A DNA stretch of 32,000 nucleotides from the NCBI RefSeq assembly GCF_000012805.1, contig NC_007484.1, positions 1,920,001-1,952,000 of the forward strand, written 5' to 3'. Each line of letters opens with the position of its first letter. The stretch's first letter is position 1. This DNA comes from Nitrosococcus oceani ATCC 19707. GTDB lineage: Bacteria; Pseudomonadota; Gammaproteobacteria; Nitrosococcales; Nitrosococcaceae. The translations under genes and the position numbers were made by a program. Positions 3,709 through 26,416 of this stretch are shown piece by piece. The notes below the pieces were generated by a model. The model did not search any database. It saw only the letters and a program-made list of their open reading frames with translations, and was not told where the DNA came from.

Positions 3709-5400
<1,692 letters not shown>

Positions 5401-5440
5401 AATCCCTAAAGGCAATTTCTAAAGTCAAAAAAAGCATCCC

Positions 5441-6847: not shown

Positions 6848-7839
6848 TTTGAAAGTTGCTCTCTCTCCGCCATCGCTAGTGCCGCCTCCACAGCCGCTTC
6901 CAAGCTGCCGCTTCCTACCGGGCCCTTGCCGGCAAGATCCAAAGCGGTGCCATGGTCCACTGAGGTGCGAATAATAGGCAGCCCCAAGGTAATATTCACC
7001 GCTCGCCCAAAACCTACATGCTTGAGCACGGGCAGCCCCTGATCATGGTACATGGCGAGCACTGCATCCGCTTCTTTCAGGTAACGGGGCACAAACAAGG
7101 TATCCGCCGGCAAGGGTCCGAATAATTGCATTCCCTGAGCCCGGAGGGTTGCTATGACCGGCTCGATGATCTCGATTTCCTCACGCCCCAAATGCCCCCC
7201 CTCTCCCGCATGGGGATTCAAGCCGCAGACTAAAATACGCGGCCTGGAAATTCCAAAGCGCTGCCTCAAATCCCGGTGCAGTATCCGCAGCGTCCCCTCC
7301 AGTCCTCGGCGGGTAATCGCGGCACTCACCTCACGCAAGGGTAAATGAGTGGTGGCTAACGCTACCCGCAGTCCAGGCGCGGTCAACATCATCACTACTT
7401 GAGAGCGGTTGCACAGCTGGGCTAAAAATTCAGTATGACCACTAAAGGAGATGCCTGCCTGATTGATAATCCCTTTGTGAACGGGACCGGTGACCAAAGC
7501 GGAAAACTCTCCTTGTAAGCAGCCTGCTACACTGCGCCGCAAACATGCTAAAACATACGCCGCATTCCCCGGAGACAAACACCCCGTGGTAACAGGGACG
7601 GGAGCCCTTAATGGTAGAACCTTCAATGTTCCGGATACCCCTGGCTCCGGCGGCTGAGCAGGATCATAGGACTCAACTATCAGGGCTAACCCCCGCTGCC
7701 GTGCCCGTTGGCGTAGAATTTCTGGATCGGCCACCACGACCAAATCATATTCCCGCCGCTGGCAGGCCAATTGGATCGAGATATCCGGGCCAATGCCAGC
7801 AGGTTCGCCAGGAGTGAGGGCCAATCGCAGGCAAGCCAT
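6844..7839 (-). CDS. pdxA: 4-hydroxythreonine-4-phosphate dehydrogenase PdxA
   Basis: [48 protein letters not shown]; synteny surA-pdxA-rsmA. Confidence 0.95.
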
Positions 7840-11654: not shown

Positions 11655-11730
<76 letters not shown>

Positions 11731-11780
11731 GGTACCCGGTGCATCAAGGTGTACTACAAACCCAGATAGCAATAGAAACT

Positions 11781-11857
11781 GTCCCCATCGTCTAGACGGC
11801 CTAGGACACCGCCCTTTCACGGCGGTAACAGGGGTTCGAATCCCCTTGGGGACGCCA
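11781..11857 (+). tRNA. tRNA-Glu (anticodon UUC), CCA encoded
   Basis: GTCCCCATCGTCTAGACGGCCTAGGACACCGCCCTTTCACGGCGGTAACAGGGGTTCGAATCCCCTTGGGGACGCCA. The acceptor stem is GTCCCCA/TGGGGAC, the anticodon stem CCGCC/GGCGG with loop CT-TTC-AC, and the T arm AGGGG-TTCGAAT-CCCCT. It is nearly identical in layout to E. coli tRNA-Glu. Confidence 0.97.
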
Positions 11858-12224
11858 TTTCAGCATGCACTTACCCGCGCTTATATTAGTCCCGGCAGAA
11901 ACCCGTAAAATACTACCAAAAGCGGGCCTTTGCGGTGGTGCCGTTAGCCATAGATTGACCATCACAAGGCAGTAAGCGCTGTTCTCTCCCCAACGCTGCA
12001 AAGCCATACCTCCGATGACACACACCCTGTAAGCCATGATCTTACGAGCGGTTCGCGCAGCCAGCGCCATAAGCTCGAAGGTTACCAATGCTCGACCACA
12101 CCATGGCCCTATCGCAGAGAATTAAGGGCACGGGAGGCATGGTACGCCAGCCACCTTTGCTGCAAGCAACTATAAATCCAGGTTACAATGTGCCCAGCAT
12201 CTCAAAACTAGGTACCGATGCGGC

Positions 12225-12836
12225 ATGGCCAGCATTTATCTCTTGAAACCTGTTTTCCAAAAGATGTTAAGGCCGGTGGTCAAGCTGCTAGCCAGGGCGG
12301 GCGTAACAGCTAACGTAGTTACTCTCACCGCAGCGGCACTATCGTTCACCGTCGGCGCCTGCATCGCCCTGTGGCCATACGCAACCTGGCCAATGTTGTT
12401 ACTACCCGGCTTTCTGTTTTTGCGTATGGCGCTCAACGCTATCGACGGTATGCTAGCTCGCGAGTATCACCAAGCATCTGCATCCGGGGCGATTCTCAAC
12501 GAGCTCGGCGACGTGCTCTCCGATGCCGTGCTCTATTTGCCATTAGCGCTGGTCAGCGTATTTAACGCAGCCTGGATGGTCGTCATCGTCGTGCTGGCCG
12601 TGATCACTGAGATGGCCGGCGTAGTTGCGGTCCAAGTGGGTTCCAAGCGGCGTTATGACGGTCCCATGGGAAAAAGTGACCGCGCTCTGGTCTTTGGCGT
12701 ACTCGGTCTGTGGTTGGGATTGGGCGGGCCAGCCGGGTGCTGGATTATTTATTTGCAAATAGCAGTAACTGTATTGATGGTTGTTACCATCTATCGGCGC
12801 GCCCGCGGCGCCCTGGCCGAAGCCGAGTCAACCTGA
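12225..12836 (+). CDS. CDP-alcohol phosphatidyltransferase-family integral membrane protein (atypical signature)
   Basis: 203 aa and polytopic. The signature spacing is exact: N71-x2-D74-G75-x2-A78-R79-x8-G88-x3-N92-x3-D96 (then x3-D100), against the canonical D-x2-D-G-x2-A-R-x8-G-x3-D-x3-D. The first and third Asp are therefore Asn. Confidence 0.8.
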   Translation: MASIYLLKPVFQKMLRPVVKLLARAGVTANVVTLTAAALSFTVGACIALWPYATWPMLLLPGFLFLRMALNAIDGMLAREYHQASASGAILNELGDVLSDAVLYLPLALVSVFNAAWMVVIVVLAVITEMAGVVAVQVGSKRRYDGPMGKSDRALVFGVLGLWLGLGGPAGCWIIYLQIAVTVLMVVTIYRRARGALAEAEST

Positions 12837-13777
12837 TGGACTGGCTTGATATTCACCCGGCCGCTCTGCAAGCTCTGGGCGGCATCCTGGGTGTGCTCGC
12901 AATCGCCAACTTGATCGTATTCATCATTCGCGGCCGATTGAGCAAGTCATTGCATCATGAACTCGTAAGCCGTATCCAGTCCTGGTGGCTGATGTTCGCC
13001 GTTTTCGCCATCGCCATGGCGATTAATCGCACGGGATCACTGATATTCTTTGCCTTTGTTTCCTTCATGGCGCTCAAGGAGTATCTGTCATTGATCCCTT
13101 CGCGGCGAGCAGATCGCCGGGTAATGTTTTGGGCCTATCTGACCATTCCCGCCCAGTATTTATTAGTGGGTTACAAATGGTACGGAATGTTCATTATTTT
13201 AATTCCAGTCTATGCTTTTTTACTGCTGCCCATGCGCATGGTATTGGTTGGCGAAACGCGCAACTTCTTACGCGCTGCGGGTACCCTGCATTGGGGTGTA
13301 ATGGCAATGGTGTTCAGCATCAGCCACGTGGCGTATTTACTGGTGCTGCCAGAGCAAGTCAATCCTGCCGCCGGTGGTGCGGGCCTCGTGCTTTATCTCG
13401 TGTTTCTGACCCAGTTCAATGATGTTGCGCAGTATTGCTGGGGTAAGCTGCTGGGCCGCCGCAAGATTCTGCCCAGCGTGAGCCCAGGCAAGACCGTCGA
13501 GGGCCTGATTGGGGGCATAGCGACTACCATAGTCTTGTCCTGGTCACTAGCCTCCTGGCTAACACCCCTGAATGTTCCCCAGTCGGTAGCTGCAGGTGCG
13601 TTGATCGGCATAGCTGGCTTCGTCGGCGATGTCACCATATCCGCCCTCAAACGCGACCTAGGTGTGAAGGACTCAGGCAGCTTACTGCCAGGCCACGGAG
13701 GCATACTGGACCGCATCGACAGTCTGATTTATACGGCACCGCTATTTTTCCACTTCATCTACTACCTGCACGGCTAA
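12836..13777 (+). CDS. Phosphatidate cytidylyltransferase (CdsA/CTP_transf_1 family) paralogue
   Basis: The C-terminal CdsA signature is present: SPGKTVEG ... SALKRDLGVKDSGSLLPGHGGILDRIDS. I moved the start from the ORF-track 12710 to the ATG at 12836 (MDWLDIHPAAL...), which overlaps the upstream stop by 1 nt (TGATG). The ORF-track extension lies inside the upstream gene. Confidence 0.85.
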   Translation: MDWLDIHPAALQALGGILGVLAIANLIVFIIRGRLSKSLHHELVSRIQSWWLMFAVFAIAMAINRTGSLIFFAFVSFMALKEYLSLIPSRRADRRVMFWAYLTIPAQYLLVGYKWYGMFIILIPVYAFLLLPMRMVLVGETRNFLRAAGTLHWGVMAMVFSISHVAYLLVLPEQVNPAAGGAGLVLYLVFLTQFNDVAQYCWGKLLGRRKILPSVSPGKTVEGLIGGIATTIVLSWSLASWLTPLNVPQSVAAGALIGIAGFVGDVTISALKRDLGVKDSGSLLPGHGGILDRIDSLIYTAPLFFHFIYYLHG

Positions 13778-13784
13778 CAATTCC

Positions 13785-14432
13785 ATGCGGATGGTGACGA
13801 AAATCGCGCGCTGGTTGTTCTTTACTCTAATTGTGCGGCCACTGATCTTGATCGTGCTGGGTTTGAACGTCCGTAATCGCGAACGACTGCCGAACCGGGG
13901 CCCAGCTATCATTGCAGCCAACCACAACAGCCACTTGGACACCTTGGTGCTCATAACCCTGATGCCGCCTAGCCTATCGCATCGGGTTCGACCCGTAGCC
14001 GCTGCTGACTACTTCTTGCGTAATCGGCTGCTGGCTTGGTTCGCCAAGGATATCATCGGCATCCTACCCATCACCCGGCAGCGAATTGAGCGAGGGGTGG
14101 ATCCACTAGAGATTTGCGACGCAGCCCTAAAACGCGGTGAAATCCTGATCTTCTTTCCAGAAGGCACTCGCGGCGAACCCGAACGGATAAACCGTTTCCG
14201 CAGGGGTATCGCCCATCTCGCCGAGCGGCATCCCGACGTACCCGTGGTGCCAGTATTTATGCGTGGACTAGGCAAAGCCCTGCCCAAAGGCGAGGCGCTA
14301 CTAGTGCCTTTCCTACTAGACGTCTACATTGGCGAGCCGCTGACGGGGCGGGTGCATGCGGATTTCCTTAATACCCTGCGGGCGCGTATACGCTCCTTGG
14401 CGGAGACCGACAAAGGGCCAGAATGGGACTGA
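13785..14432 (+). CDS. Lysophospholipid / 1-acyl-sn-glycerol-3-phosphate acyltransferase (PlsC family)
   Basis: N-terminal TM helix, H-x4-D catalytic motif (AANHNSHLDT), and FFPEGTRG motif. It starts 7 nt after the cdsA-like stop. Confidence 0.85.
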   Translation: MRMVTKIARWLFFTLIVRPLILIVLGLNVRNRERLPNRGPAIIAANHNSHLDTLVLITLMPPSLSHRVRPVAAADYFLRNRLLAWFAKDIIGILPITRQRIERGVDPLEICDAALKRGEILIFFPEGTRGEPERINRFRRGIAHLAERHPDVPVVPVFMRGLGKALPKGEALLVPFLLDVYIGEPLTGRVHADFLNTLRARIRSLAETDKGPEWD

Positions 14433-14656
14433 GAACAGAGCCCTGGTAAGAGCTAACCTAAAAAGCCCGCCTAATTCTTTGATCATGCTGATTTGAGTTA
14501 AAGCGTAGCCAAAATAGGTTTCCCCGACCGTTTGTAATTTTGGTACATTGACGTTTCGTGTCGAGCAATTGTGAAAATTATCCATAAAGGGTAGGCTGTG
14601 CTTGGAAAATACGGCACTCTCGGCAAGCCTGGCAACACAAAAAATGGAGACGCTCC

Positions 14657-16393
14657 ATGGGGAAACGGGAACAAGAGACCAATGAGTTCACGACCTGGGA
14701 TGGAACCCGGTTGTTCTACCGTACTTGGCCACCGGTCAGTCCCACCGACCGGGCGTTGATACTGATTCACCGCGGACATGAACACTCCGGACGCCTTCAG
14801 GAATTGGTGGACGACTTGGATCTTCCCAGCTTCTGGGCCTTTTCGTGGGACAACCGCGGCCACGGCAAATCTCCAGGTCAACGCGGTGACGCCCCCAGCT
14901 ATTCCGCCCTAGTGCGCGATCTAGACGCCTTTGCCCGGCATTTGCAGGAAACTCACGGACTCAAGATGGAGAATATTGCTGTGGTGGCCAACAGCGTCGG
15001 CGCGGTGACTGCGGCCGCCTGGGTCCATGACTATGCGCCCCCTATCCGTTCCATGGTACTGGCGGCACCCGCGTTTCGCATCAAACTCTACGTGCCCTTT
15101 GCCATTCCTGCTCTTCGCCTGTGGCGGTGGTGGCGCCAGGCAGCGGTTATCAATAGCTATGTGAAATCGCGCATGCTCACGCACGATCCGGAACAATCCC
15201 GAGCCTACGATGAGGATAAGCTGATTACTCGCAACATATCGGTAAAAATCCTGCTGGGACTACACGACACTGCTACCCGCTTGCTGCGGGACGCCGGTGC
15301 GATCCGCACACCGACACTCGTTCTATCGGCTGGCTCCGACTGGGTGGTTAAGAATTCTGCTCAGCGGCGCTTTTTCCGGGGCCTCTCCTCCGCAGTCAAA
15401 CGTATGGAGCATTACGCCGGGTTCTTTCACGCAATATTATACGAAAAGGGGCGAGAGAAACCCATCAACGAAACGCGCCGTTTCCTGCTAGAGAGCTTCG
15501 AGCACCCGGTGGAGTTGCCTTCGCTGTTAGAAGCGGACCGGGGTGGCTACAGCCGCACAGAGCATGACCTGCTTCGCCAACCTACCGTATGGCCGCGGCA
15601 GATGTTATTCACGCTTCAAAAAAAGAGTATCGAAACGGTAGGGCGGCTTAGTAAGGGCATCCGCGTAGGGCTCCGGACGGGGTTCGACTCCGGACAATCC
15701 CTGGACTACGTTTACGAAAACCGAGCGCGGGGCCTGACGCCCGTCGGCAAATGGATCGATCACGCCTATCTGAATACTGTTGGCTGGAGAGGCATCCGTA
15801 TCCGCCGCAAGCATCTACAGGAACTGCTGCAAAAAGCCATTGAGGATCAACTCCAAAAGCACGATAAAATCGAGATCGTGGACGTGGCCACCGGTTGCGG
15901 GCGATATGTGTTGGAGGTGCTGGAAAAGCTGCCCCAAGAAAAAATACACGCCCGGCTACGTGACTGGACGCCAGCCAATCTCGAGCAAGGAAGGGCACTG
16001 GCTGCCGAAAAGGGCTTGGAGAACGTTGAGTTCGAGTTGGGCGATGCCTTTGACCGCGACGGGCTGCTGGCTATTTCCCCGCAGCCACATATCATCATTG
16101 TTTCCGGGCTGTACGAGCTGTTCCCGGAAAACGATCGGGTTGCAATATCATTGGCAGGCATCGCCGAAGTGCTGGTGGACAGGGGCTACCTGCTATATAC
16201 CTGCCAACCCTGGCATCCGCAGCTAGAGCTCATCGCTCGCACGCTGGTCAACCGTGAGGGAGAACCTTGGGTCATGCGGCGGCGAACGCAGGCGGAGATG
16301 GATGAGCTTGTGGCGGCGGCTGGCCTCCAAAAGCAGGACATGCGTATCGATGAATACGGAATCTTCACCGTTTCGGCAGCTCGCAGAGTTTGA
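14657..16393 (+). CDS. Bifunctional alpha/beta-hydrolase (lysophospholipase/monoacylglycerol-lipase-like) :: class I SAM-dependent methyltransferase fusion
   Basis: The N-terminal half has ALILIHRGHEHSGR (oxyanion HG region), a nucleophile elbow VVANSVGA (A-x-S-x-G variant) and a late His (GFFHAIL). The C-terminal half has SAM motif I, IVDVATGCGRYVLE, plus acidic loop/post-I elements (LRDWTPANL, GDAFD, IIIVSGLYELF). GGAGA sits 6 nt upstream of the ATG. Confidence 0.8.
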   Translation: MGKREQETNEFTTWDGTRLFYRTWPPVSPTDRALILIHRGHEHSGRLQELVDDLDLPSFWAFSWDNRGHGKSPGQRGDAPSYSALVRDLDAFARHLQETHGLKMENIAVVANSVGAVTAAAWVHDYAPPIRSMVLAAPAFRIKLYVPFAIPALRLWRWWRQAAVINSYVKSRMLTHDPEQSRAYDEDKLITRNISVKILLGLHDTATRLLRDAGAIRTPTLVLSAGSDWVVKNSAQRRFFRGLSSAVKRMEHYAGFFHAILYEKGREKPINETRRFLLESFEHPVELPSLLEADRGGYSRTEHDLLRQPTVWPRQMLFTLQKKSIETVGRLSKGIRVGLRTGFDSGQSLDYVYENRARGLTPVGKWIDHAYLNTVGWRGIRIRRKHLQELLQKAIEDQLQKHDKIEIVDVATGCGRYVLEVLEKLPQEKIHARLRDWTPANLEQGRALAAEKGLENVEFELGDAFDRDGLLAISPQPHIIIVSGLYELFPENDRVAISLAGIAEVLVDRGYLLYTCQPWHPQLELIARTLVNREGEPWVMRRRTQAEMDELVAAAGLQKQDMRIDEYGIFTVSAARRV

Positions 16394-17515
16394 TTGCTGC
16401 CACCTATATCCCTGCTTGTTCCCGTGAGCAAGACCTCTGTACACCCCCTCCTCTCGAGCGGCATCATAAACTACGCGAGGCTCCTAAACGCCTATGGGTT
16501 CGACATGCGGCACCTGCCTCGAGTCCTTGGCCTGGGTCTAGGTATCCTGGCGCGGGAGCCTGTTTCCTGGATCGCCGCGGCCCGCTACCATCGCCGAGTG
16601 GAACGGCAAGAAATCGCGCCGGACCCGCTATTTATCGTCGGCCACTGGCGGAGCGGGACAACCCACCTCCAGAATCTGTTGAATTGCGACCCACAATTTA
16701 GCTGTGTAACCCTGCTGCAGGCAGGGATGCCGCGCGAGTATCTGCTACTTTCCGAGGGGGTGAAGCGATGGCTCGGGCGCCTACTTCCCTCGACCCGGCT
16801 AATGGACAACGTTTCCATCGCCGCCGACGTGCCTTGGGAGGAGGAACTCGCCCTGGCCGCAGCGAGCCGGTACTCCTTTTATCACGTCTCCTTTTTTCCG
16901 CGGAGCATGGAACGTATTTTCGACGAAGCGGTGATGTTCGACTCAGTCCCGCAGGCTGCAATCCGGAAATGGTGGACTGGGTATCTTCGCTTCCTGCAGA
17001 TGGTACAATACGATCAGCCTGGGCGGCGCCTACTGCTAAAAAATCCCGCCAACACGGCACGAATCCGGCTACTGAAAAAGCGATTTCCTAAGGCGCAATT
17101 CATCCACATCCACCGTAACCCCTACAAGGTGTTCGTCTCCTCGGTCCATCTTTACCTGCAAGCACAGAACGCTTGGGGCCTACAATCGACCGACCGGCAG
17201 CGCGTGGTGGCACACGTTTTGGCATCCTATCCACAGCTGATGCGGGCATATTTCGAGCAACGTGAAGTATTGGCCGAAACCGATTTAGCGGAGGTCAGTT
17301 TCGCATCCCTCCAAAAAGCGCCACTGGAAACCCTCGAATCCATCTACTGCCGCTTGGATCTCACCGGTTTCGAAGAGGCGGTGCCGCGGTTCCGGGCCTA
17401 TCTGGAGAGACAGAAAGGATACCGTAAGAATCGCCTGGAGCTGACGGAGAGCGAACGGGCAGCCGTGGCAACCTGCTGGAGAGATATTTTTACGGGGCTA
17501 GGATATGAAATGTAG
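16394..17515 (+). CDS. PAPS-dependent sulfotransferase-family protein
   Basis: 5'-phosphosulfate-binding loop GHWRSGTTHLQNLL, and a LLLKNPANTARIRLLKKRFPKAQFIHIHRNPYKVFVSS (3'-phosphate-binding region)-type segment. The start is uncertain: TTG 16394 abuts the upstream TGA, and GTG 16424 is an alternative. Confidence 0.8.
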   Translation: MLPPISLLVPVSKTSVHPLLSSGIINYARLLNAYGFDMRHLPRVLGLGLGILAREPVSWIAAARYHRRVERQEIAPDPLFIVGHWRSGTTHLQNLLNCDPQFSCVTLLQAGMPREYLLLSEGVKRWLGRLLPSTRLMDNVSIAADVPWEEELALAAASRYSFYHVSFFPRSMERIFDEAVMFDSVPQAAIRKWWTGYLRFLQMVQYDQPGRRLLLKNPANTARIRLLKKRFPKAQFIHIHRNPYKVFVSSVHLYLQAQNAWGLQSTDRQRVVAHVLASYPQLMRAYFEQREVLAETDLAEVSFASLQKAPLETLESIYCRLDLTGFEEAVPRFRAYLERQKGYRKNRLELTESERAAVATCWRDIFTGLGYEM

Positions 17516-18245
17516 CCCCTATTTGGTGCCCAATCTCCGGATCGCCCTGTACTATGTGACAGGCGCGACAATACTAATTCTCGCGATATTCTCCCTGGGA
17601 GTTTGGGGATTGCCGCTGGCCTGGCCGGCTCTGGCCATGCTCCTTGTAGCCGCCGGATACACGACCCTGGGACCAGCAATTTACGGCAAGCGTGGCGGAC
17701 GTCTCTCCCCGCTTTCCCGTCTTTTACTTGCTCCCACGCAGTTCTGTCAATACCTGTCTTTGCTCTACTACCGGCGGCAATGCCGACCCTGGGACGAGGT
17801 GGCGCCAGGGGTGTTCATCGGAAGTATGCTCACTCGAAAAGAGGCCACCCGTTTAACTGAAGCGGGTTTGAAGGCCGTATTAGACCTGACAGCTGAGTTC
17901 TCGGAGACCCCCGATCTCCAGGTTTTGCGCTACCACAATATTCCCATCCTGGATCTGACCGCTCTGACTCCGGCCCATCTGACGGAGGCGGTACAGTTTA
18001 TACAAGCATGCCGCCAGCGGGGTGATGGGGTGTTCGTGCACTGCAAGGCGGGATACTCCCGAAGCGCCAACGTGGTAGGCGCCTACCTAATGGCTGCGGG
18101 CATCTGCCGAACCACCGGGGAAGCCATCGCCCGCCTGCGGCAAGTACGGCCCTCCATCGTCATCCGTCCGGAAGTGCGGAATTCACTGCGGCAATTCGAG
18201 CAGATGCTTCAGGCAAGCTGCTGGAGCAAGGAGGGGGAACGGTAA
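17505..18245 (+). CDS. Membrane-anchored dual-specificity (Cys-X5-Arg) phosphatase, PTPMT1-like
   Basis: Two N-terminal hydrophobic helices (residues about 13-55). The DSP fold has the P-loop VHCKAGYSRS (C180, R186; the Cys codon is 18042..18044) and a candidate general-acid Asp (IPILDLT) 30 residues upstream. The ATG overlaps the sulfotransferase gene by 11 nt. Confidence 0.8.
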   Translation: MKCSPYLVPNLRIALYYVTGATILILAIFSLGVWGLPLAWPALAMLLVAAGYTTLGPAIYGKRGGRLSPLSRLLLAPTQFCQYLSLLYYRRQCRPWDEVAPGVFIGSMLTRKEATRLTEAGLKAVLDLTAEFSETPDLQVLRYHNIPILDLTALTPAHLTEAVQFIQACRQRGDGVFVHCKAGYSRSANVVGAYLMAAGICRTTGEAIARLRQVRPSIVIRPEVRNSLRQFEQMLQASCWSKEGER

Positions 18246-18388: not shown

Positions 18389-18961
18389 CTACCAAATTAC
18401 CGGCGGAAACGATCTGCGAAGAAAATGTAGCGCCCTTCCCGTCCATTGCCGCTCTTGCTCGATTTGCTCACGCTGGGCGCGAATCGTAGCCTTTTTGTTT
18501 TCCAGGCTCTCCAGCAACCGATTTTTTTCCTGCTTATGCTGCGCCATCAATTGATCAAGCTCAGAACGCTTTGGGGAGCGAAAATCCGAAGCGTTGCGCC
18601 CCGTCACCAAAGCCGCCCGGTGGGCGAGCAAATCTAAAATTAACTCCCGCTTAGCTACCGGAGTCAGTTCATAAGCCAGTCCCAAACCCGCCGGCAACGC
18701 CTTGATACGTGCCAACTCCTGATCAACTAAATGCAGGTGTTCGGTCAGCAGCGTTTGGCAATTCACGGATGAGCCGCGCATCTTCAGTTCTCTTTGCACC
18801 TCCTTCGCAGGCACGGCTTGGACACCCAAGGGCGGCTGATAACCATATCTTGGCGTACCCGAGGCGTCGGTCCAACGGTAGAGTGTTGCAGCAATTGCCG
18901 GCTGAAAGATAATAAACCCAATAATTAATATTAATCTCAATCCACTACGTTTTCTATTCAT
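18389..18961 (-). CDS. Secreted DUF4124-domain protein with coiled-coil C-terminus
   Basis: Signal peptide (LRLILIIGFIIFQPAIAA) followed by LYRWTDASGTPRYGYQPP, the DUF4124-type motif as I recall it. The C-terminal half is charged and heptad-like. Confidence 0.6.
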   Translation of the reverse strand: MNRKRSGLRLILIIGFIIFQPAIAATLYRWTDASGTPRYGYQPPLGVQAVPAKEVQRELKMRGSSVNCQTLLTEHLHLVDQELARIKALPAGLGLAYELTPVAKRELILDLLAHRAALVTGRNASDFRSPKRSELDQLMAQHKQEKNRLLESLENKKATIRAQREQIEQERQWTGRALHFLRRSFPPVIW

Positions 18962-19073
18962 CTCCCCACCTCAACGCTCTCTCAACAGGAGCGAAAAAAA
19001 CAAATTGTTTATTTCGAGCTTAAATAATTAAAGTGGGAACAGCAAACGAGAAGCTAGCCTGGCAACAACTATT

Positions 19074-19102
19074 TTGACATTATTATTTTTAGAATCTAAT
19101 CT
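19074..19102 (+). promoter_or_regulatory. Possible sigma70 promoter for the 19138 gene
   Basis: A perfect TTGACA (19074..19079), a 17-nt spacer, then a weak -10 TAATCT (19097..19102), 36 nt upstream of the ATG. Confidence 0.3.
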
Positions 19103-19137
19103 TTATTTTATCCCTTCATACTTAACCGCATCACAAC

Positions 19138-20286
19138 ATGCTGCCAAGCCCAACACAGCACCTTTTCTTCATTACGCTTCATTGGATATTGGTTCTGTTG
19201 GTCCTTGCGCTAATAGGCTTGGGAGGGTATCTCCAATACTTGCCACCTACGGCCCCAAAGCAAGCATTTTCTGTCAATCTACATATCTCTCTAGGATTGA
19301 CAAGCATGATATTAGTCATTTTTCAAATTTTGCTATGGTTAGTATTGGGTAGACCTCAATCTTCAGAAACCGTTTCTCACTGGCAACAAGCCATCACCCG
19401 CAATCTATATATTTTGTTCTATGTATGCGTGATAATTTTGGGAGTCAGCGGTTTTTTTCAAGCCACTGCCAGCGGAATCTCCGTTAAATTTTGGGGTCTG
19501 CCAGTTCCCGCTGGGAAAAAAAAGGACCCTGATTTAGCAGGATTTACCGAGGCGTTACATGGGATTTCATCGCTCGCCCTGGTAGTATTGGTAGTTATCT
19601 GGATAGGCGTTATTTTACTAAAAACCTATCAGCAGAACAAAATTTTTTATGGCAATGCACTATCTAAAAAAATCAAATCGGAAGTAACATCACCGCCTCT
19701 TTCCAAAGCAATTTTAAGGCTGGTCAGAAATCTCCGTCTACTTGGATGGACGGCTTTCTGGATACAGTTCGGGCTTGCAATTGCGTCCGCGCTGCTATTG
19801 CTTTTTACTACCTCAGGCCAATCTCTTTCTCCTAACCAACTTAGCAGCGGCCTCACCTGGGCAGTTTATGATTTTATTATCCTCTGTTTAACTACCCTAT
19901 TTTTCTTTTATTACACCCGGCTTGCTAAAAAAATTACTTTGAAACCGAATTTTTATATTAATCCGGAAAAAAAATCCTCTCCTTGGTTTTTAAGACTCAG
20001 TTACAAAACCAGTCTTCTGGGAATGCTTGTTAGTTTCATCGGCATTGGAACAAGCTTATATCTGCTAATAGCGAAAACCGTTTCTCAACCACCGGGCATC
20101 GCCATTACCGATCCCAGCAAGATCGTGCGCGCCCTTGATGTCTTTATACTGCTGATAAATTTTGGTTTACTGATTGCTCACTTTATAGGCGCGGTAATCT
20201 CCATTTGGGTAACCGTCCTTGCCTCGGGCGCCCATAAGAAAATGCTGCTTGCTGACCCTCCTGCCAATAACTCTTTAATTACCTAA
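19138..20286 (+). CDS. 8-TM membrane protein: N-terminal cytochrome b561-like 4-helix module fused to a C-terminal 4-TM module (DUF3611-like by recollection)
   Basis: The N-terminal half has TM helices with His in positions typical of CybB-type b561 (ITLHWIL, VNLHISLG, EALHGISS). The C-terminal half (LLGWTAFWIQFGLAIASALLLLF ...) has four more helices. The gene is strongly AT-rich compared with its neighbours. Confidence 0.6.
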   Translation: MLPSPTQHLFFITLHWILVLLVLALIGLGGYLQYLPPTAPKQAFSVNLHISLGLTSMILVIFQILLWLVLGRPQSSETVSHWQQAITRNLYILFYVCVIILGVSGFFQATASGISVKFWGLPVPAGKKKDPDLAGFTEALHGISSLALVVLVVIWIGVILLKTYQQNKIFYGNALSKKIKSEVTSPPLSKAILRLVRNLRLLGWTAFWIQFGLAIASALLLLFTTSGQSLSPNQLSSGLTWAVYDFIILCLTTLFFFYYTRLAKKITLKPNFYINPEKKSSPWFLRLSYKTSLLGMLVSFIGIGTSLYLLIAKTVSQPPGIAITDPSKIVRALDVFILLINFGLLIAHFIGAVISIWVTVLASGAHKKMLLADPPANNSLIT

Positions 20287-20507
20287 ATCTTACTACCACA
20301 AGGATAGTAGCACCATATCGATACCCGGCTGGGTCTGTATAGTGGAGTGGAGCTGGTGTATCATTTTTTCTCTAAATATAAAAAATAAAATGAAAGGTCT
20401 TGATCAAATTATTCTTGCTGTTTTTGGGCTGGGGATGGATATAGGGATTGCGTTGGGCTTATTGTTTTTTTGCTAGTCGATAATCCCGCTTTCAAGCACC
20501 CCTTGTC

Positions 20508-22742
20508 TCAGGAAAGGGTTTTCCCTGGCGGAGGCACATTTTCATCATAAAAACCGATTCCTTGTTGGGCTAGATCAACTAGGAGAGAAGCAGGCGTAAA
20601 ACGTTTACCAAACTGCTCTTGGTAATGGACGAGTTGCTTGGAAACATTCCTCAATCCCTGGTTATCAATAAAGCGAAAAGGACCCCCTAAAAAAGGTGGA
20701 AAACCTAACCCAAAAACAGCGCCTACATCGCCGTCCCGGGCTGACCGTAAAATACCCTCGTGGTAGCAATGCACCGCCTCATTAATCATCGGTAGAAGGC
20801 AACGCATCGCAATTTCATTGGCCTCTAACTTTTTATCTGGTTTGATACCTAATGACTGATAAACGGATTGATCTACCTGCTTTCCTTTTCCTTTAAAAAT
20901 CCCATCCATTTTCTGATAACGATATAAACCCTGGCCATTTTTTTTGCCCAAGCGATGGGAACTCACTAATTTTGCGAGCACTGATGTAGGTTTCATCCGC
21001 TCACCAAAGGCTTCCTCCAGGATATGGGCGATCTTTTGCACCACATCGATACCCACCTCATCCAAAAGTTTGAGAGGTCCTACGGGAAAGCCAAAATTAA
21101 CCAATGCCTTATCGATATCCTGAATGGAGACTCCCTCGGCTAAAAGATGCGTGGCCTCATTGATATAAGGGGCCAGTATCCGCGTGGTATAAAAACCCGC
21201 CCCATCACGAACCACGATTACTGTTTTGTTTTGCTGTTTACCCAGTGCAACACAGGTGGCGACTACCTCCGGCACGGTTTTCTCAGTTACAATAACTTCA
21301 AGGAGCGGCACCTTGGGCACGGGCGAGAAATAATGCATGCCAACCACCGCCTCGGGACGATCACTCGCCTCGGCAATTTTATGAATGGGGATAGAGGAAG
21401 TATTGGAAGCAAAAATCATCTCCGGACCGCCATGGGCTTCTACTTCACGCAACACCTGCTGTTTTACCTTAAGATCTTCCACCACCGCCTCAATTACCAC
21501 ATCGGCTTGTTTAAAGCCGGTGTATTCGGTGGTGGGACGGACCAAAGCAAGTACCCGATCGCCTTCTCCCGCCGTCATGCGCCGTTTTTTAACTTGCTCA
21601 GTGACGGCATTCCATAAAGTGCGGAGCCCTTGCCGTAAGACCTCCTGCTTAAGGTCTTTTAAGCGCACCGGCAAACGCGCTTTCGCAGCGGTTACATAGG
21701 CTATGCCACTTCCCATCAAGCCCGCTCCCAAAACGCCCACTTTACGCACTAACCGGGGTGCTATCTCTTCATCGGTGCCCGGATCTTTTTTCAGCGCTGA
21801 TTTCGCCAAAAACAACGCCATGAGATTACGGGCCTTGGTGCTCACAGCCAAGTCGCCAAAAGCCTCCACTTCCGCTTTAAAGCCCGCTTCCAAGCCCTGC
21901 TCCATACCCGTCTTGATGACTTCAAGCGCCTGGAGGGGCGCCGGTAGATTGCCATGGGTATGGGAAAGCACCTTTTTCTTAGCCTGATTAAACACCATGG
22001 AGCGCCCGAGGGAATTTTTTTCCAACAACAGCGATCTAACCTTCCGCAAGCTCAACATGCTGCCGAAAATTCGGCTAACCTGTTGAAATGTGCCCGCTTC
22101 AGGCTCCTTGTTATTTTCCTGAACAAGTTCACGGGCACGGGCCAAAGCCGCTTCCAACAGCACTGGCCGAGGCACCACCTCGTCAACCAATCCCAGAGCG
22201 CAGGCTTTAGAAGCAGGATGGGTTTTACCCGTTAATATCATATTCAGAGCCGTCTCCAAACCTACCAGACGAGGTAACCGCTGGGTGCCCCCTACGCCAG
22301 GAATAACCCCCAATTTGACTTCTGGCTGGCCCAACCGGGTGCGGGCGCTATTGGTGGCCACACGCCCCCGGCAAGCCAAGGCCACCTCCAGCCCCCCGCC
22401 CAGGCAGACCCCGTGGATCGCCGCTACAATGGGGAGAGGAAAAGCTTCCAGCTGATCCATCGCTTGTTGGGCGGTGCGGGAGAGCTGCCGGGCCGCCTCA
22501 GCATCCGGCAATTGGGTCAACATCTTGATATCGGCGCCCGCGATAAAATCCTCCTTGGCCGAGGCCAGCACCACTACCTCTAAATCCTTATCCGCCGACA
22601 ATTGTTCAAGCACTCGGTTAAAATCTTGAGCAAAGTCCGCCTGCAATGTATTGACCGAAACATCAGGCACATCAAGCCAAATAATAGCTGCGTTATCTTC
22701 CCGCTTTTCAATCCGCAGTGAGCGGAACGTTCCATTTGTCAT
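20508..22742 (-). CDS. fadJ: Fatty-acid oxidation complex alpha subunit (enoyl-CoA hydratase / 3-hydroxyacyl-CoA dehydrogenase), FadJ-like
   Basis: The N-terminal crotonase fold has ASAKEDFIAGADIKML and AAIHGVCLGGGLEVALAC. The central NAD-binding motif is VGVLGAGLMGSGIA. The N-terminus aligns with my memory of E. coli FadJ. I moved the start from 22799 to the ATG at 22742 (MTNGTFRSL...), which overlaps the thiolase stop (ATGA). Confidence 0.9.
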   Translation of the reverse strand: MTNGTFRSLRIEKREDNAAIIWLDVPDVSVNTLQADFAQDFNRVLEQLSADKDLEVVVLASAKEDFIAGADIKMLTQLPDAEAARQLSRTAQQAMDQLEAFPLPIVAAIHGVCLGGGLEVALACRGRVATNSARTRLGQPEVKLGVIPGVGGTQRLPRLVGLETALNMILTGKTHPASKACALGLVDEVVPRPVLLEAALARARELVQENNKEPEAGTFQQVSRIFGSMLSLRKVRSLLLEKNSLGRSMVFNQAKKKVLSHTHGNLPAPLQALEVIKTGMEQGLEAGFKAEVEAFGDLAVSTKARNLMALFLAKSALKKDPGTDEEIAPRLVRKVGVLGAGLMGSGIAYVTAAKARLPVRLKDLKQEVLRQGLRTLWNAVTEQVKKRRMTAGEGDRVLALVRPTTEYTGFKQADVVIEAVVEDLKVKQQVLREVEAHGGPEMIFASNTSSIPIHKIAEASDRPEAVVGMHYFSPVPKVPLLEVIVTEKTVPEVVATCVALGKQQNKTVIVVRDGAGFYTTRILAPYINEATHLLAEGVSIQDIDKALVNFGFPVGPLKLLDEVGIDVVQKIAHILEEAFGERMKPTSVLAKLVSSHRLGKKNGQGLYRYQKMDGIFKGKGKQVDQSVYQSLGIKPDKKLEANEIAMRCLLPMINEAVHCYHEGILRSARDGDVGAVFGLGFPPFLGGPFRFIDNQGLRNVSKQLVHYQEQFGKRFTPASLLVDLAQQGIGFYDENVPPPGKTLS

Positions 22743-24031
22743 GAGGTTACCTCCAGCACCATAGCCGCACCCATTCCCCCCGCCGCGCAGGCGGTACACA
22801 GGGCAACTCCGCCACCGCGCCGCTTCAATTCTCCCAGAGTCTGAGCAATTTCCCGGGCGCCCGTAGCGGCAAAGGGGTGGCCCATGGCAATAGACCCCCC
22901 ATTGACATTCAATTTATCCCAATCGACTTCTCCAATCGGCTGGCTCCGGTTTAATTTTTCCCGGGCAAAGGAGACCGATTCGAAGGCTTGGATGGTCGAT
23001 AAGGTCGTGGCGGCAAAGGCTTCGTGCATATCGATCACATCCATATCTGCTAAGGTCATTCCCGCCCGCTCCAAAGCAATAGGGGTTGCATAGGCAGGCC
23101 CTAGCAGCAGCTGATCAAAGGGGTCCAGCGCTGCAAAGGCATAGCTGCGAATCTTTCCCAAAATAGGCATTCCCAAAGCTCTTGCCTTAGCCTCGTTCAT
23201 TAACAATAGGGCGCTGGCTCCATCGGTTAAAGGAGAACTATTCCCCGCGGTGACAGAGCCGTATTTCCGATCAAAAACGGGGTTCAGTTTGGCGTAATCG
23301 GCCAAATCGGACTCCGGCCGCAGCAGGTTATCCTCCTCTAAGGTATCCGTAAACTCAGGTGGAATAGGCACGGCCATCACTTCCTCGGAAAATTTCCCCT
23401 CTCGCCAAGCCTGGGCGGCGTGCTGATGGCTACGGCGGGCAAATTCATCCTGGGCTTGCCGGGAGATACCATTCTCCTTGGCCATCCGCTCCCCCGCTTC
23501 TCCCATAGTCTCTCCCGTGGTAGGTTCCGCAATCGCAGGCGGGCGGGGACGTAAGTCCCTGAGAGAAATTTCCTTGAAGGCGGCGAGGCGTTGGAGCAAG
23601 GTTTTAGCACTGGCAGCCTCGTGCAGGGCCTCTTGGAAAGGTTTAGAAACTGCGATAGGCACATCGCTTGCACTCTCCGTTCCACCCGCAATTCCACACT
23701 CAATGGCCCCTTCCTGGATGGCTTCTAATACATTGACCGTGGTTTGATAGCTGGTGATACAGGCTTTGGAGACGGTATAAGCTGGAATTTCCGCAGGCAT
23801 CCCAAGCCCTAACACAATCTCCCGAGCGACATTCGGAGCTTGCAATGACGGAATAACCTGGCCAAACACCACTTGCTCCACCGTTCTAGGATCGATATCC
23901 ACGCGTTCCAACAGTTCCCCGCACACCAGTTTCCCCAGACCCAAGGGAGAGAAATGCTTCAACGCTGTCCGCCGTTTAGCAAAGGGCGTGCGCAACCCCG
24001 CCACAATTACCGCATGCCTACTCTTGTTCAT
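22739..24031 (-). CDS. fadI: 3-ketoacyl-CoA thiolase (acetyl-CoA C-acyltransferase), FadI-like
   Basis: IVAGLRTPFAK..., active-site context VSKACITSYQ, and C-terminal NVNGGSIAMGHPFAATG ... ACAAGGMG. It is closely colinear with E. coli FadI as I recall it. The thiolase-first gene order matches fadIJ rather than fadBA. Confidence 0.88.
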   Translation of the reverse strand: MNKSRHAVIVAGLRTPFAKRRTALKHFSPLGLGKLVCGELLERVDIDPRTVEQVVFGQVIPSLQAPNVAREIVLGLGMPAEIPAYTVSKACITSYQTTVNVLEAIQEGAIECGIAGGTESASDVPIAVSKPFQEALHEAASAKTLLQRLAAFKEISLRDLRPRPPAIAEPTTGETMGEAGERMAKENGISRQAQDEFARRSHQHAAQAWREGKFSEEVMAVPIPPEFTDTLEEDNLLRPESDLADYAKLNPVFDRKYGSVTAGNSSPLTDGASALLLMNEAKARALGMPILGKIRSYAFAALDPFDQLLLGPAYATPIALERAGMTLADMDVIDMHEAFAATTLSTIQAFESVSFAREKLNRSQPIGEVDWDKLNVNGGSIAMGHPFAATGAREIAQTLGELKRRGGGVALCTACAAGGMGAAMVLEVTS

Positions 24032-24136
24032 TCAGCAGATCCCATCAATTTAAAGATATATACCAGCAACCTTAGAAGATATAACGACAAATGCAAGATC
24101 AGGGTAAAATTCCTTTGGCGCTAATCTTAGCCATCC

Positions 24137-26416
24137 TTATCCTCCGGAAAGGATTTGCTCACGCCTCAGCACCTGCTCCCCGCTGAGCTCTTCCGGGGAA
24201 AAATCATCGACCGTAATAATCTCCCAGGTGAGTTTTTCCGCTTTCTCAGCCAACTTTGCTTCCACCTCTGAAATGACTCCCCTGCTAACGGCCTCTTCCA
24301 GGGAAAGACTTTTAAGTCCCCTTTCCTTGGCTGCCCGGCGCAGTTTTTTGTTAGCCTCATCGGCCGCAATGACCGTTTTAAAAGCCTCCTCCAAATGGGC
24401 AATTGGATCTTTTTCCCTACTGCCCAGAAAAACTCCTGCCGTCAGGCGATCCCGGCTGCTCGAAGGCGACAATAATAGCGCCGCACACTGTCGCCCTACA
24501 TCATCCGAGGGTTTTCCAAATCGTCTGCCCCAAGGAAATAAAACCCACCGTAATAGCCCACCTACAGGGCGGGAAGGATAGTTGGCGAGAATCTCATCGA
24601 GTGTTTGCTGAATAAGGTAAAGCTCTCGCTGGCCACACCAATGTAACAAGGGAATATCTTCTCTAGGCTGGCCGTCATCTTTGAAACGCTTCAGGAGACA
24701 ACTCAGTAAATACAGATGGCTCAGGCAGTCACCTAGGCGGGCCGATATTTTTTCCCGCCGCTTTAATTCTCCCCCCAAAATTAACGAGGTAAGATCAGCC
24801 ACCAACGCAAATGAGGCACTCATTCGCCCCAACTGCCGATAATAGTAGTCAACCGTTACTTCCGCTTCCGGGACAGGAGACCAACGCCCCCCACTCAGGT
24901 TATGCCACCAAGCTCGGCCAAAATTACACAGCAAAAACCCCATATGACCAAATATGGCCTGGTCAAAGGCAACTAATCCTTCCTTTTCATCGGGGTTTTG
25001 CGCTGCCTGCATCTCCTTGAGCAGATAAGGATGACAACGAATGGCGCCTTGACCAAAAATAATCATGCTGCGAGTGAGGATATTTGCCCCTTCCACGGTA
25101 ATGGATACCGGAATAGCATGGTAGCTATTGGCTAGATAGTTACTCGGCCCCTCGCAAACGGCCTTGCCGCCATGGACGTCCATGGCGTCGTTAATAGTCT
25201 CCCGCATGCGCATGGTGGAGTGGTATTTGGCGATGGCGGAAAGCGTAGAAGGCTTGTCCCCCTGATCCACTGCCGCGGTGGTTGCCGTCCGAAGGGCATC
25301 TAGTAAGTAGGCATTGCCGGCAATGCGGGTTAACACCTCCTCTACCCCTTCGAACTTGCCAATGGGCAAGCGGAATTGTTTTCTCACCCGGGCGTAGGCC
25401 CCCGTAGCGCGGGCGCATAATTTGGCGGCACCGGTACTCATGGAAGGCAAAGATACGGAGCGCCCAACCCCCAGGCATTCCATCAGCATCTGCCACCCTT
25501 GGCCAGCCCGCTCCTGGCCGCCAATAATCCATTCTAGGGGCATGAATACCTCCTGACCGGTAGTAGGGCCGTTCTGGAACGCTTGGTAAGAGGGATAATG
25601 ACGCCGTCCTATTTGCACACCCGGCGTTTCTGTAGGCACCAAGGCGAGGGTAATGCCAATGTCTTCCTGCTCACCCAGTAGATGGTCTGGATCATAAAGA
25701 TGGAACGCCAATCCTAATACGGTCGCAATGGGACCTAAAGTGATATAGCGTTTATTCCAGGAGACTCTCATGCCCAAGGTACGCTTTCCTTGATAATCGC
25801 CATAGCACACCACCCCTGAGTCAGGCATGGAAGCGGCATCGGAACCCGCCGTGGGCCCCGTCATGGCAAAACAGGGTAACTCCTCGCCCCGGGCTAGCCG
25901 AGGGAGATAATGGCTTTTTTGTTCTTCTGTTCCATAGAGCAGCAAAAGCTCCGAAGGCCCCAATGAATTAGGCACCATAACGGTTACGGCGGCCGTCACG
26001 CTCCGGCTCGCTAATTTTCCGATCACCGAAGAGTGAGCCAAGGCTGAGAACTCCAATCCCCCATAAGCTTTAGGAATAATCATTCCCCAGAAACCATTAT
26101 TCTTGATAAATTGCCATGCCTCTAGGGGCAAGTCTTTTCGCTCATGGTTAATTTCCCAGTCATTAAGCAACCCGCAGAGTGTTTCCGTCGGACCCTCAAG
26201 AAATGCCTGCTCCTCCTCCGTAAGGCGTGGCTTGGGTAAATCGTGCAGGTATTGCCAATTGGGTTTACCGGAAAAAAGCTCGGCCTCCCAACCCACCGTA
26301 CCTGCATGTAACGCCTGCTCCTCCGTCTCCGAGAGAGGGGGCAATACCCGGCGTACCCTCTTGAGCACAGGCCGGCTAATCAGATTGCGCCGCAAAGACA
26401 AGAAAAAATTAACCAT
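24137..26416 (-). CDS. fadE: Large acyl-CoA dehydrogenase, FadE-like
   Basis: It is colinear with E. coli FadE from PPLSETEEQALHAGTVGWEAELFSGKPNW through HYLPRLARGEELPCFAMTGPTAGSDA, WNKRYITLGPIATVLGLAF, ITVEGANILTRSMIIFGQGAIRCHPY and ISARLGD. I prefer the ATG at 26416 (MVNFFLSL..., with GGGGA 9 nt upstream) over the ORF-track start at 26482. Confidence 0.9.
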   Translation of the reverse strand: MVNFFLSLRRNLISRPVLKRVRRVLPPLSETEEQALHAGTVGWEAELFSGKPNWQYLHDLPKPRLTEEEQAFLEGPTETLCGLLNDWEINHERKDLPLEAWQFIKNNGFWGMIIPKAYGGLEFSALAHSSVIGKLASRSVTAAVTVMVPNSLGPSELLLLYGTEEQKSHYLPRLARGEELPCFAMTGPTAGSDAASMPDSGVVCYGDYQGKRTLGMRVSWNKRYITLGPIATVLGLAFHLYDPDHLLGEQEDIGITLALVPTETPGVQIGRRHYPSYQAFQNGPTTGQEVFMPLEWIIGGQERAGQGWQMLMECLGVGRSVSLPSMSTGAAKLCARATGAYARVRKQFRLPIGKFEGVEEVLTRIAGNAYLLDALRTATTAAVDQGDKPSTLSAIAKYHSTMRMRETINDAMDVHGGKAVCEGPSNYLANSYHAIPVSITVEGANILTRSMIIFGQGAIRCHPYLLKEMQAAQNPDEKEGLVAFDQAIFGHMGFLLCNFGRAWWHNLSGGRWSPVPEAEVTVDYYYRQLGRMSASFALVADLTSLILGGELKRREKISARLGDCLSHLYLLSCLLKRFKDDGQPREDIPLLHWCGQRELYLIQQTLDEILANYPSRPVGGLLRWVLFPWGRRFGKPSDDVGRQCAALLLSPSSSRDRLTAGVFLGSREKDPIAHLEEAFKTVIAADEANKKLRRAAKERGLKSLSLEEAVSRGVISEVEAKLAEKAEKLTWEIITVDDFSPEELSGEQVLRREQILSGG

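Follow-up and report, generated by a model that had tools for sequence, protein, structure and literature searches.

What does a compact run of six lipid-enzyme-like genes, one of them specifying a sulfotransferase, do for Nitrosococcus oceani, and has anything of its kind been seen before? The genes lie at positions 12225-18245 of a 32,000-nucleotide stretch of the N. oceani ATCC 19707 genome (NC_007484.1, positions 1,920,001 to 1,952,000); this whole stretch is called the window here, and coordinates refer to it unless another locus is named. The core of the cluster turns out to be the arc1 cluster of Pseudomonas aeruginosa, known genetically since 2022: by sequence comparison, five of the window's genes are homologous, gene for gene, to PA2541, PA2536, PA2537, PA2540 and the dual-specificity phosphatase (DSP) half of PA2539. 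What is new is a variation on this theme. A form that carries a sulfotransferase and lacks a PAP2 domain, together with an Asn/Asn signature in the head-group transferase, appears to be undescribed in searchable papers. As to function we lean, though not heavily, toward regarding the N. oceani cluster as an arc1-type variant that would make an anionic phospholipid, sulfated in this instance, by a private route through CDP-diacylglycerol.

The cluster

The features, in order, are these:

12225-12836, + strand: CDP-alcohol phosphatidyltransferase-family protein, PA2541 type (PF01066 CDP-OH_P_transf, 37.5 bits against a cut-off of 22)
12836-13777, + strand: CdsA-family CTP:phosphatidate cytidylyltransferase paralogue, PA2536 type (PF01148 CTP_transf_1, 227 bits)
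13785-14432, + strand: PlsC/Aas-type lysophospholipid acyltransferase, PA2537 type (PF01553 Acyltransferase, 86.8 bits)
14433-14656, no strand: intergenic gap of 224 nt inside the cluster, candidate internal promoter or leader
14657-16393, + strand: alpha/beta hydrolase + methyltransferase fusion, 578 aa, PA2540 type (PF12146 Hydrolase_4, 228 bits; PF12147 Methyltransf_20, 472.6 bits)
16394-17515, + strand: PAPS-type (3'-phosphoadenosine 5'-phosphosulfate) sulfotransferase (PF13469 Sulfotransfer_3, 112.6 bits)
17505-18245, + strand: membrane-anchored dual-specificity (Cys-x5-Arg) phosphatase, short form (PF00782 DSPc, 81.9 bits)

All six open reading frames (ORFs) are in the ORF list at the coordinates that a preliminary description of this DNA had given, and in each of them the Pfam domain named there is matched above its curated cut-off; on genes and domains that description stands. 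The fusion protein is 100% identical to one of N. oceani ATCC 19707, and the layout is also found in two other N. oceani assemblies.

Kinship with arc1

PA2541-PA2536 of P. aeruginosa are arc1, "antagonism resistance cluster 1" (Ting et al. 2022, PMC8926400). The cluster is induced via Gac/Rsm and needed to survive the B. thailandensis T6SS (type VI secretion system), and it is dispensable for growth; it comprises five genes of phospholipid metabolism, four of them homologous to enzymes of phosphatidylglycerol (PG) synthesis, for which the core machinery is encoded elsewhere (PMC8926400). More recently, arc1A has been found necessary if cells are to resist TseL and Tle1, lipase effectors of the T6SS, in full (Nat Commun 2025, PMC12663445). 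Arc1 is a major determinant of P. aeruginosa survival under type VI attack.

The P. aeruginosa contig used for comparison (L164, retrieved through the Pseudomonas cluster of fusion proteins) has the order tamA-tamB-CDPOH-fusion-PAP2/DSP-150 aa protein-acyltransferase-CdsA, and the published primers for deletion of PA2541 and PA2536 anneal exactly around its CDP-OH transferase and CdsA genes. Over nearly their full lengths, PA2541, PA2540, PA2537 and PA2536 are, respectively, 53%, 50%, 37% and 44% identical to their window counterparts (BLASTP). The window phosphatase corresponds to residues 218-429 of PA2539 (BLASTP, 37% identity), the PAP2 domain being absent. A tblastn search found no counterpart of PA2538 in the window, and most related loci likewise lack it. 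The preliminary description knew of no characterized bacterial phospholipid pathway in which this core is coupled to a sulfotransferase; the core itself is not an undescribed system, being that of a cluster described in 2022. In L164 (740-6141) arc1 is located directly downstream of tamA-tamB, the outer-membrane translocation and assembly module.

How far does the likeness go? Five enzyme families, the Asn/Asn (N/N) transferase signature, the hydrolase-methyltransferase fusion and accessory status are common to both clusters. They part company in the following: 1) the sulfotransferase is found only in the window; 2) arc1 has a PAP2 + DSP phosphatase (PA2539), whereas the window has the DSP half alone; 3) arc1 includes the PA2538-like small protein and the window does not; 4) gene order is CDPOH-fusion-phosphatase-PA2538-PlsC-CdsA in arc1 and CDPOH-CdsA-PlsC-fusion in the window; 5) Gac/Rsm induction and a defense phenotype are known from P. 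aeruginosa only.

A five-gene module spread across phyla

The hydrolase-methyltransferase fusion is the signature gene of the cluster, with at least 7940 homologues at E < 1e-20 in a protein collection clustered at 90%. Among GTDB contigs (one genome per species) at least 575 stretches encode relatives of it, and these span Planctomycetota, Verrucomicrobiota, Acidobacteriota, Nitrospira, Pseudomonas, Chromobacterium, Competibacteraceae and others. The window proteins were searched against the ORFs of 83 loci (L001-L083), and linkage was counted in the 48 GTDB loci that extend at least 6 kb to both sides of the fusion gene. Within 6 kb of the latter are found a CDP-OH transferase (43/48), a CdsA (41/48), an acyltransferase (40/48) and a DSP phosphatase (36/48); all four partners are present in 31 of the 48, and there are at least 10 gene orders, the window's own being the commonest. 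Pfam-annotated examples come from a Desulfobacterota metagenome-assembled genome (MAG) and from Coraliomargarita sinensis (Verrucomicrobiota), in which the six genes are permuted relative to the window. The partners also occur joined in single polypeptides ("Rosetta-stone" fusions): P0387 is an 807-aa protein combining CDP-OH transferase, hydrolase and methyltransferase, its gene followed by DSP-PlsC-CdsA; in other cases the CDP-OH transferase is fused to CdsA or to the acyltransferase.

Recurrence of one gene set in so many phyla puts the arrangement far beyond what chance would give. The preliminary description had made its case hinge on a gene-neighborhood comparison, and that comparison finds the genes co-conserved. 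Its more specific expectation, that all six co-occur across genomes, fares less evenly: five do so very broadly, the full six only in a marine sub-lineage that is taken up below. Arc1-type clusters occur in hundreds of species of Pseudomonadota, Planctomycetota, Verrucomicrobiota, Acidobacteriota and Nitrospirota.

An atypical head-group transferase

The canonical signature of CDP-alcohol phosphatidyltransferases, D-x2-D-G-x2-A-R-x8-G-x3-D-x3-D, has four Asp. The window transferase reads N71-AI-D74-G-ML-A-R-x8-G88-AIL-N92-ELG-D96; in alignment with PgsA1 of Mycobacterium tuberculosis (Mtb) and PgsA of S. aureus, canonical Asp 1 and 3 are Asn. The N/N signature is present in 36 of 36 type-A cluster members (Pseudomonas among them), in all aligned type-B members (which are more divergent and have lost the motif Arg too), and in 133 of the 150 best library representatives retrieved by a search that is blind to gene neighborhood (1.84 billion representatives, 226 of them with E <= 1e-30). 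The third Asp of the signature is generally taken to be the catalytic base, and its replacement by Asn throughout the family suggests that the chemistry of the transferase is altered. PgsA-like chemistry, on which the preliminary description had drawn, is not to be assumed for an enzyme in which two canonical catalytic Asp are absent.

If not PgsA, what is the closest model? The PgsA equivalog model of NCBIfam (TIGR00560) gives 22.2 bits for the window protein against a cut-off of 109. The models for archaetidylinositol-phosphate (AIP) synthase (NF040950, 70.9 bits against 180 for the window protein) and for phosphatidylinositol-phosphate (PIP) synthase (NF045883, 46.4 against 170) score best for all 12 of the family members tested, ahead of PgsA and far below the equivalog cut-offs. 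In a PDB profile search, the family profile matches Mtb PIP synthase at E 2.6e-17 and S. aureus PgsA at 1e-3; it aligns end to end with the PIP synthases of Mtb, M. kansasii and Renibacterium, and Arg residues of the Mtb enzyme are matched by the family's invariant R153 and R192. By these comparisons the family resembles PIP synthases more than it does PgsA. The PIP and AIP synthases (Mtb PgsA1, 6h53; RsPIPS, 5d92; AIPS) are the window transferase's nearest sequence relatives, with alignment over the full length and with the paired Arg residues just mentioned. The window enzyme differs from them in scoring under their equivalog cut-offs, in having Asn for D1 and D3, and in lacking a linked inositol-phosphate synthase.

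One N/N-type member has an unusual partner: P0500 (L168, 478-1686) is a 402-aa fusion of a TagD-like glycerol-3-phosphate cytidylyltransferase domain to an Asn/Asn-type transferase, on a 2-kb contig.

A sulfotransferase gained, a PAP2 domain lost

The sulfotransferase has the 5'-phosphosulfate loop and the 3'-phosphate R...S of PAPS-binding proteins: GHWRSGTT, R231 and S239 are shared without exception by 13 sequences. Among PDB structures its relatives are Stf1 of M. tuberculosis (2zq5), Stf9 of M. avium (2z6v) and the CurM sulfotransferase; a homologue bears, in one source, the label of menaquinone-lipid sulfotransferase Stf3. The mycobacterial Stf0/Stf1/Stf3/Stf9 enzymes and CurM, the nearest solved or annotated relatives, are PAPS-dependent and act on lipid or acyl substrates; they are only distantly homologous to the window enzyme (E 3e-18, C-terminal half) and their genomic context is unrelated.

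The preliminary description had placed this gene in the core of a single six-gene pathway, and here the comparison goes against it. The sulfotransferase is present in 1 of 80 GTDB loci, with Coraliomargarita as a second case. Its close orthologues (at least 46% identity) form at least ~120 clusters at 90% identity, and the contigs of these orthologues are equal in size to those bearing fusion-protein matches. In the ten loci examined (the window, L003, L004, L084-L086, L088 and L165-L167) the sulfotransferase gene adjoins that of the phosphatase, and in eight of these ten the fusion gene is beside it as well. The lineages concerned are mainly marine and include MAGs of Woeseiaceae, Puniceicoccaceae and Opitutales, an isolate of Coraliomargarita, and N. 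oceani. Going further out, 75 more distant homologues from metagenomes (no more than 43% identity), many of them on short contigs, have no cluster partner genes. A general association of the sulfotransferase family with the cluster is therefore rejected; only the close orthogroup has cluster partners.

The phosphatase changes with it. In 10 of 10 sulfotransferase loci it is the short form (~230-265 aa); 56 of 62 loci that have no sulfotransferase specify a phosphatase with an N-terminal extension of at least 119 aa, usually 190-250 aa, and this extension is a PAP2-superfamily domain (PAP2_3/PAP2). In the marine sub-lineage, then, the genes for fusion and phosphatase have a sulfotransferase gene inserted between them, and the phosphatase is without its PAP2 domain. 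The sulfotransferase is a lineage-specific addition to the conserved core and not a part of it.

Some individual loci of this type deserve mention. L167, the closest relative of the window cluster (fusion 77% identical), has an IS481-type transposase fragment after the phosphatase gene (7088-7603). In L165 a sulfatase gene (13340-14752) lies 2.5 kb downstream, and upstream of the L166 cluster (1439-4266) are genes for an acyltransferase-thymidylate-kinase fusion and a lipid kinase (DAGK_cat). L087 (2055-3695) has a 54%-identical sulfotransferase orthologue split into two ORFs, with no cluster partner within 11.7 kb; this may be a decaying copy.

The remaining enzymes

The CdsA-type protein exceeds the Pfam cut-off of its family, but reaches 113 bits (and these in its C-terminal half only) against the equivalog cut-off of 385 in PRK11624; it is thus a member of the family and not the housekeeping orthologue. 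The usual context of cdsA is uppS-cdsA, from which the gene content and order of the cluster differ. The acyltransferase has the motifs H-x4-D (HNSHLD) and FPEGTR in its translation, both of them conserved in homologues and the latter kept in 58 family members. Its best NCBIfam matches are the acyltransferase domain of Aas, at 75.6 bits, and AGP_acyltrn, where the cut-off is 103 and it reaches 72.2, so that it scores as well with Aas as with PlsC models; the PlsC equivalog PRK15018 gives 16 bits where 501 are called for. With the CdsA, PlsC and PgsA equivalog cut-offs all missed, and with the P. aeruginosa homologue cluster dispensable, the claim that this is an accessory and not a housekeeping cluster is upheld. 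In L042 (Nitrospira) there is a large ORF similar to the LplT-Aas-type fusion of L001 that is described further on.

The hydrolase half of the fusion belongs with the monoacylglycerol lipases (MGLs) in its motifs: it has the pattern HG-x-x-EH-x-x-R, the Ser-Asp-His triad and the Hydrolase_4 domain, and both the triad (Ser113/Asp228/His258) and the oxyanion motif HGHEHSGR are invariant in 12 sequences. The PDB profile search matches it to the MGL Rv0183 at E 5.5e-25. In the predicted model of the fusion (predicted local distance difference test, pLDDT, 77) a fold search aligns the hydrolase domain with Rv0183 MGL at a TM-score of 0.81. The methyltransferase half, predicted to adopt a Rossmann fold (pLDDT 80-95) of the class I S-adenosylmethionine (SAM) type, has its SAM motifs intact: D409-A-x-G-x-G, D436 and D463-A-F are invariant in the same number of sequences. 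Its nearest folds are 3ocj, a Bordetella protein of unknown function, and small-molecule methyltransferases of natural-product pathways. A Methyltransf_2-type O-methyltransferase with a dimerization domain is encoded directly 3' of the fusion gene in L022 (11710-12699) and in six other loci, Woeseiaceae among them.

The phosphatase has its DSPc domain behind two hydrophobic N-terminal segments. Its P-loop, HCKAGYSRS, conforms to H-C-x5-R-[ST]; across the family the sequence is HCK[IAV]GYSR[ST] or CCALGYSRS. PDB matches include PTPMT1 (3rgo, E 1.5e-10), a phosphatidylglycerophosphate (PGP) phosphatase with whose P-loop that of the window protein agrees. This fits the logic, put forward at the outset, of a transferase that couples a phosphorylated alcohol and a phosphatase that then removes the phosphate. 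Two families of hydrophobic proteins of ~150 aa, without Pfam match, adjoin the phosphatase gene elsewhere, one in 13 loci (L034, 13004-13450) and the PA2538-like one in 6 Pseudomonas-type loci (L164, 10103-10555); neither is in the window.

What might the cluster make?

The route favored above can be set out step by step. A PlsC/Aas-type enzyme would acylate a lysolipid to phosphatidate and the private CdsA would convert the latter to CDP-diacylglycerol; the atypical transferase would couple the phosphatidyl moiety with a phosphorylated polyol drawn from central metabolism, and the PTPMT1-like phosphatase would strip the terminal phosphate. The fusion of lipase-like and methyltransferase domains would remodel an acyl ester and methylate the product or a by-product, and the sulfotransferase would O-sulfate the freed head-group hydroxyl, so that sulfate would be installed where the canonical system uses a PAP2 domain. 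Dependence on SAM and PAPS, along with the orientation predicted for the phosphatase domain, would put all this on the inner membrane's cytoplasmic side. By analogy with arc1, the role might lie in changing or mending the membrane so as to make it resistant to attack on the envelope, by phospholipase or otherwise.

Where would the head group come from? The preliminary description had noted that no gene for making a head-group alcohol lies in the window, and this extends to related loci: all-versus-all clustering of flanking ORFs in the 83 loci yielded no inositol-phosphate synthase or similar gene, the only recurrent items being small membrane proteins and the second O-methyltransferase (7 loci). 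With no head-group gene linked, central metabolism is the probable source of the acceptor. Glycerol-3-phosphate would be the default candidate; the affinity of the transferase to PIP synthases makes an inositol-phosphate-like acceptor a possible one. That the head group is methylated and/or O-sulfated, as first proposed, is pure inference.

The PG pathway (PlsC, CdsA, PgsA, then PgpA/B/C or PTPMT1) has the same order of enzyme families, and the PTPMT1-like P-loop is in the window. It differs in that the window transferase is weakly PgsA-like (22 bits against 109; PDB E 1e-3), with two catalytic Asp absent, and in that the window adds a hydrolase-methyltransferase and a sulfotransferase. Chemical precedents, by analogy, for a PG-type head group bearing sulfate or methyl are the haloarchaeal phosphatidylglycerosulfate (PGS) and phosphatidylglycerophosphate methyl ester (PGP-Me); these, in contrast, are archaeal ether lipids with no sequence link to the genes of the window. 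Bacterial PGS or PGP-Me was not found in the searchable literature, which held haloarchaeal reports only, and searches on the enzyme combination, on N. oceani lipids and on bacterial sulfated phospholipids turned up nothing relevant. One can go a step further and suppose that the six genes make a sulfated, possibly methylated anionic glycerophospholipid, a bacterial counterpart of haloarchaeal PGS, with the PAPS sulfotransferase replacing PAP2 function and with the Asn/Asn transferase performing a non-canonical head-group transfer. In this full form the proposal is doubtful and we offer it tentatively; if true, it would be the first bacterial pathway to a sulfated glycerophospholipid and would reveal the type of product of the arc1 defense cluster. 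If marine bacteria do make a sulfated phospholipid, this would also matter for the substitution of sulfur for phosphorus in oceanic lipids.

Several considerations weigh against a private route to a sulfated phospholipid. 1) The two absent Asp of the transferase include the usual catalytic base, which may put standard phosphatidyl transfer in doubt. 2) The TagD fusion P0500 hints at a CDP-alcohol, not CDP-diacylglycerol, as the donor in some members. 3) No head-group gene is linked to the cluster. 4) The substrate of the sulfotransferase could be something other than a lipid. 5) The methyltransferase fold is of the generic small-molecule type, and the fold search gave no clue to its substrate. 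6) No lipid product has been identified for arc1 in either of the two papers on it (PMC8926400, PMC12663445), nor for any other cluster member.

Even so, the comparison constrains arc1 chemistry through the Asn/Asn variant, the PIP-synthase affinity, the Rosetta-stone fusions and the exchange of sulfotransferase for PAP2. At 6 kb on one strand, the version in N. oceani is compact and directly expressible, and a sulfate tag (80 Da loss, 35S) would make its product easier to find. The cluster is of solid interest because it offers this compact and taggable route to the arc1 product.

Other explanations

The main rival is a module for repair or salvage of damaged membrane that makes no novel lipid at all: the lipase-like domain would clear lysolipids or monoacylglycerols, the Aas/PlsC-type enzyme would re-acylate, CdsA, transferase and phosphatase would rebuild ordinary PG, and the methyltransferase (with the sulfotransferase) would detoxify by-products such as free fatty acids and alcohols. 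We consider this improbable while giving it real weight. The need for arc1A against the lipase effectors TseL and Tle1 (PMC12663445) is what one would expect of a repair system, as is the homology of four arc1 genes to enzymes of PG synthesis (PMC8926400). The best NCBIfam match of the acyltransferase is to the lysophospholipid acyltransferase domain of Aas, and the modeled hydrolase domain is structurally close to monoacylglycerol lipases. L001, from a Desulfobacterota MAG, specifies immediately upstream of its arc1-like cluster (2591-5980) a 1129-aa fusion of the LplT-Aas type, made up of MFS, acyltransferase and AMP-binding parts. But why should the plain rebuilding of PG call for a strictly conserved non-canonical transferase motif, or for a sulfotransferase translationally packed between fusion and phosphatase? 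Housekeeping enzymes, moreover, already cover these steps.

An inositol-type pathway, in which the transferase would be a divergent PIP synthase and the DSP a PIP phosphatase, with inositol then O-methylated and/or O-sulfated, is quite unlikely. It accounts well for the preference of 12/12 members for AIP/PIP synthase models and for the end-to-end profile alignment with the Mtb, M. kansasii and Renibacterium enzymes; P-loops of the PTPMT1 and PTEN kinds, furthermore, act on phosphoinositides as well as on PGP. It is harder to reconcile with scores that fall far under the equivalog cut-offs (71 against 180; 46 against 170) and with inositol-1-phosphate synthase being neither linked in the window nor recurrent in 80 related loci. 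We also know of no de novo synthesis of inositol phosphate in Pseudomonas.

A transferase working with a soluble CDP-alcohol donor (CDP-glycerol, for example) might yield a glycerophospho-decorated or non-lipid product, on the analogy of IPCT-DIPPS. This is what the fusion of N/N-signature member P0500 to a TagD-like domain would suggest, and some members could indeed use such a donor; P0500 is, however, a single case on a 2-kb contig without context. The linked cytidylyltransferase is of the CdsA type in 41/48 loci, CdsA-transferase fusions exist, and the linkage to PlsC points to a diacylglycerol backbone, all of which makes the proposal very unlikely for the cluster at large.

Barely credible, finally, is a chance grouping of ordinary housekeeping genes, the sole cdsA/plsC/pgsA copies of the genome: although there are family-level Pfam matches to CdsA, PlsC and CDP-alcohol transferase, this reading is rejected on equivalog scores that are far too low (113 against 385 for CdsA, 16 against 501 for PlsC, 22 against 109 for PgsA), on the altered catalytic motif of the transferase, on the absence of the cluster from most bacteria, and on the P. 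aeruginosa homologues, which are non-essential and have the core machinery encoded elsewhere (PMC8926400).

Gene starts and junctions

The preliminary description had all six genes tightly packed. For several junctions this is so: base 12836 is common to the TGA stop of the transferase gene and the ATG start of the CdsA gene, 7 nt (13778-13784) separate the genes for CdsA and the acyltransferase, and the ATG of the phosphatase gene at 17505 lies 11 nt inside the sulfotransferase gene, the TAG of which is at 17513-17515. Packing is not uniform: genes 3 and 4 are parted by the 224-nt untranslated gap, which has no conserved ORF and no Rfam match and is possibly an internal promoter or leader. 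A search for riboswitches and leader RNAs found no Rfam match in this gap or in the 367-nt region upstream of the cluster, two tRNAs excepted, and scans for promoters and terminators came out at background level.

The abutment of the fusion's stop (TGA, 16391-16393) on a TTG at 16394 is real as sequence and probably not as a junction of genes. The true start of the sulfotransferase is probably the GTG at 16424, which gives a protein of 363 aa, as in the public N. oceani annotation and most homologues; the conserved HPL motif occupies residues 7-9 of the homologues, in support of this choice. With that start there is a 30-nt gap after the fusion gene. The ATG start of the transferase gene at 12225 is backed by the N-termini of homologues (MASIYLLKP here, MASIYQLKP in L042); the public annotation of the two other N. 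oceani assemblies starts the gene 18 nt downstream.

Surroundings of the cluster

The cluster is flanked by lptD-surA-pdxA-ksgA on one side and, on the other, by a DUF4124 gene, a cytochrome b561-DUF3611 gene and genes of fatty-acid beta-oxidation. GC content is 0.54-0.62 in the cluster, 0.46-0.51 upstream and about 0.40 downstream. Genes for tRNA-Ala(GGC) and tRNA-Glu(UUC) are directly upstream (11655-12224), followed by the 367-nt untranslated stretch; direct repeats of the att type were looked for at these tRNA genes and none were found. Acquisition of the cluster as a genomic island is possible.

Beyond the cluster, a sharply AT-rich block (18900-20500, GC 0.39-0.43) contains the cytochrome b561-DUF3611 fusion gene (19138-20286, 382 aa). 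The beta-oxidation set just downstream of the cluster (20508-26482, - strand) specifies a FadB-like multifunctional enzyme, a thiolase and a FadE-type acyl-CoA dehydrogenase, and is followed by an acetyl-CoA hydrolase/transferase gene (26618-28804, + strand). At the end of the window, a gene for a B12-binding radical SAM protein (29509-31077, - strand) adjoins a fragment of cobalamin-independent methionine synthase.

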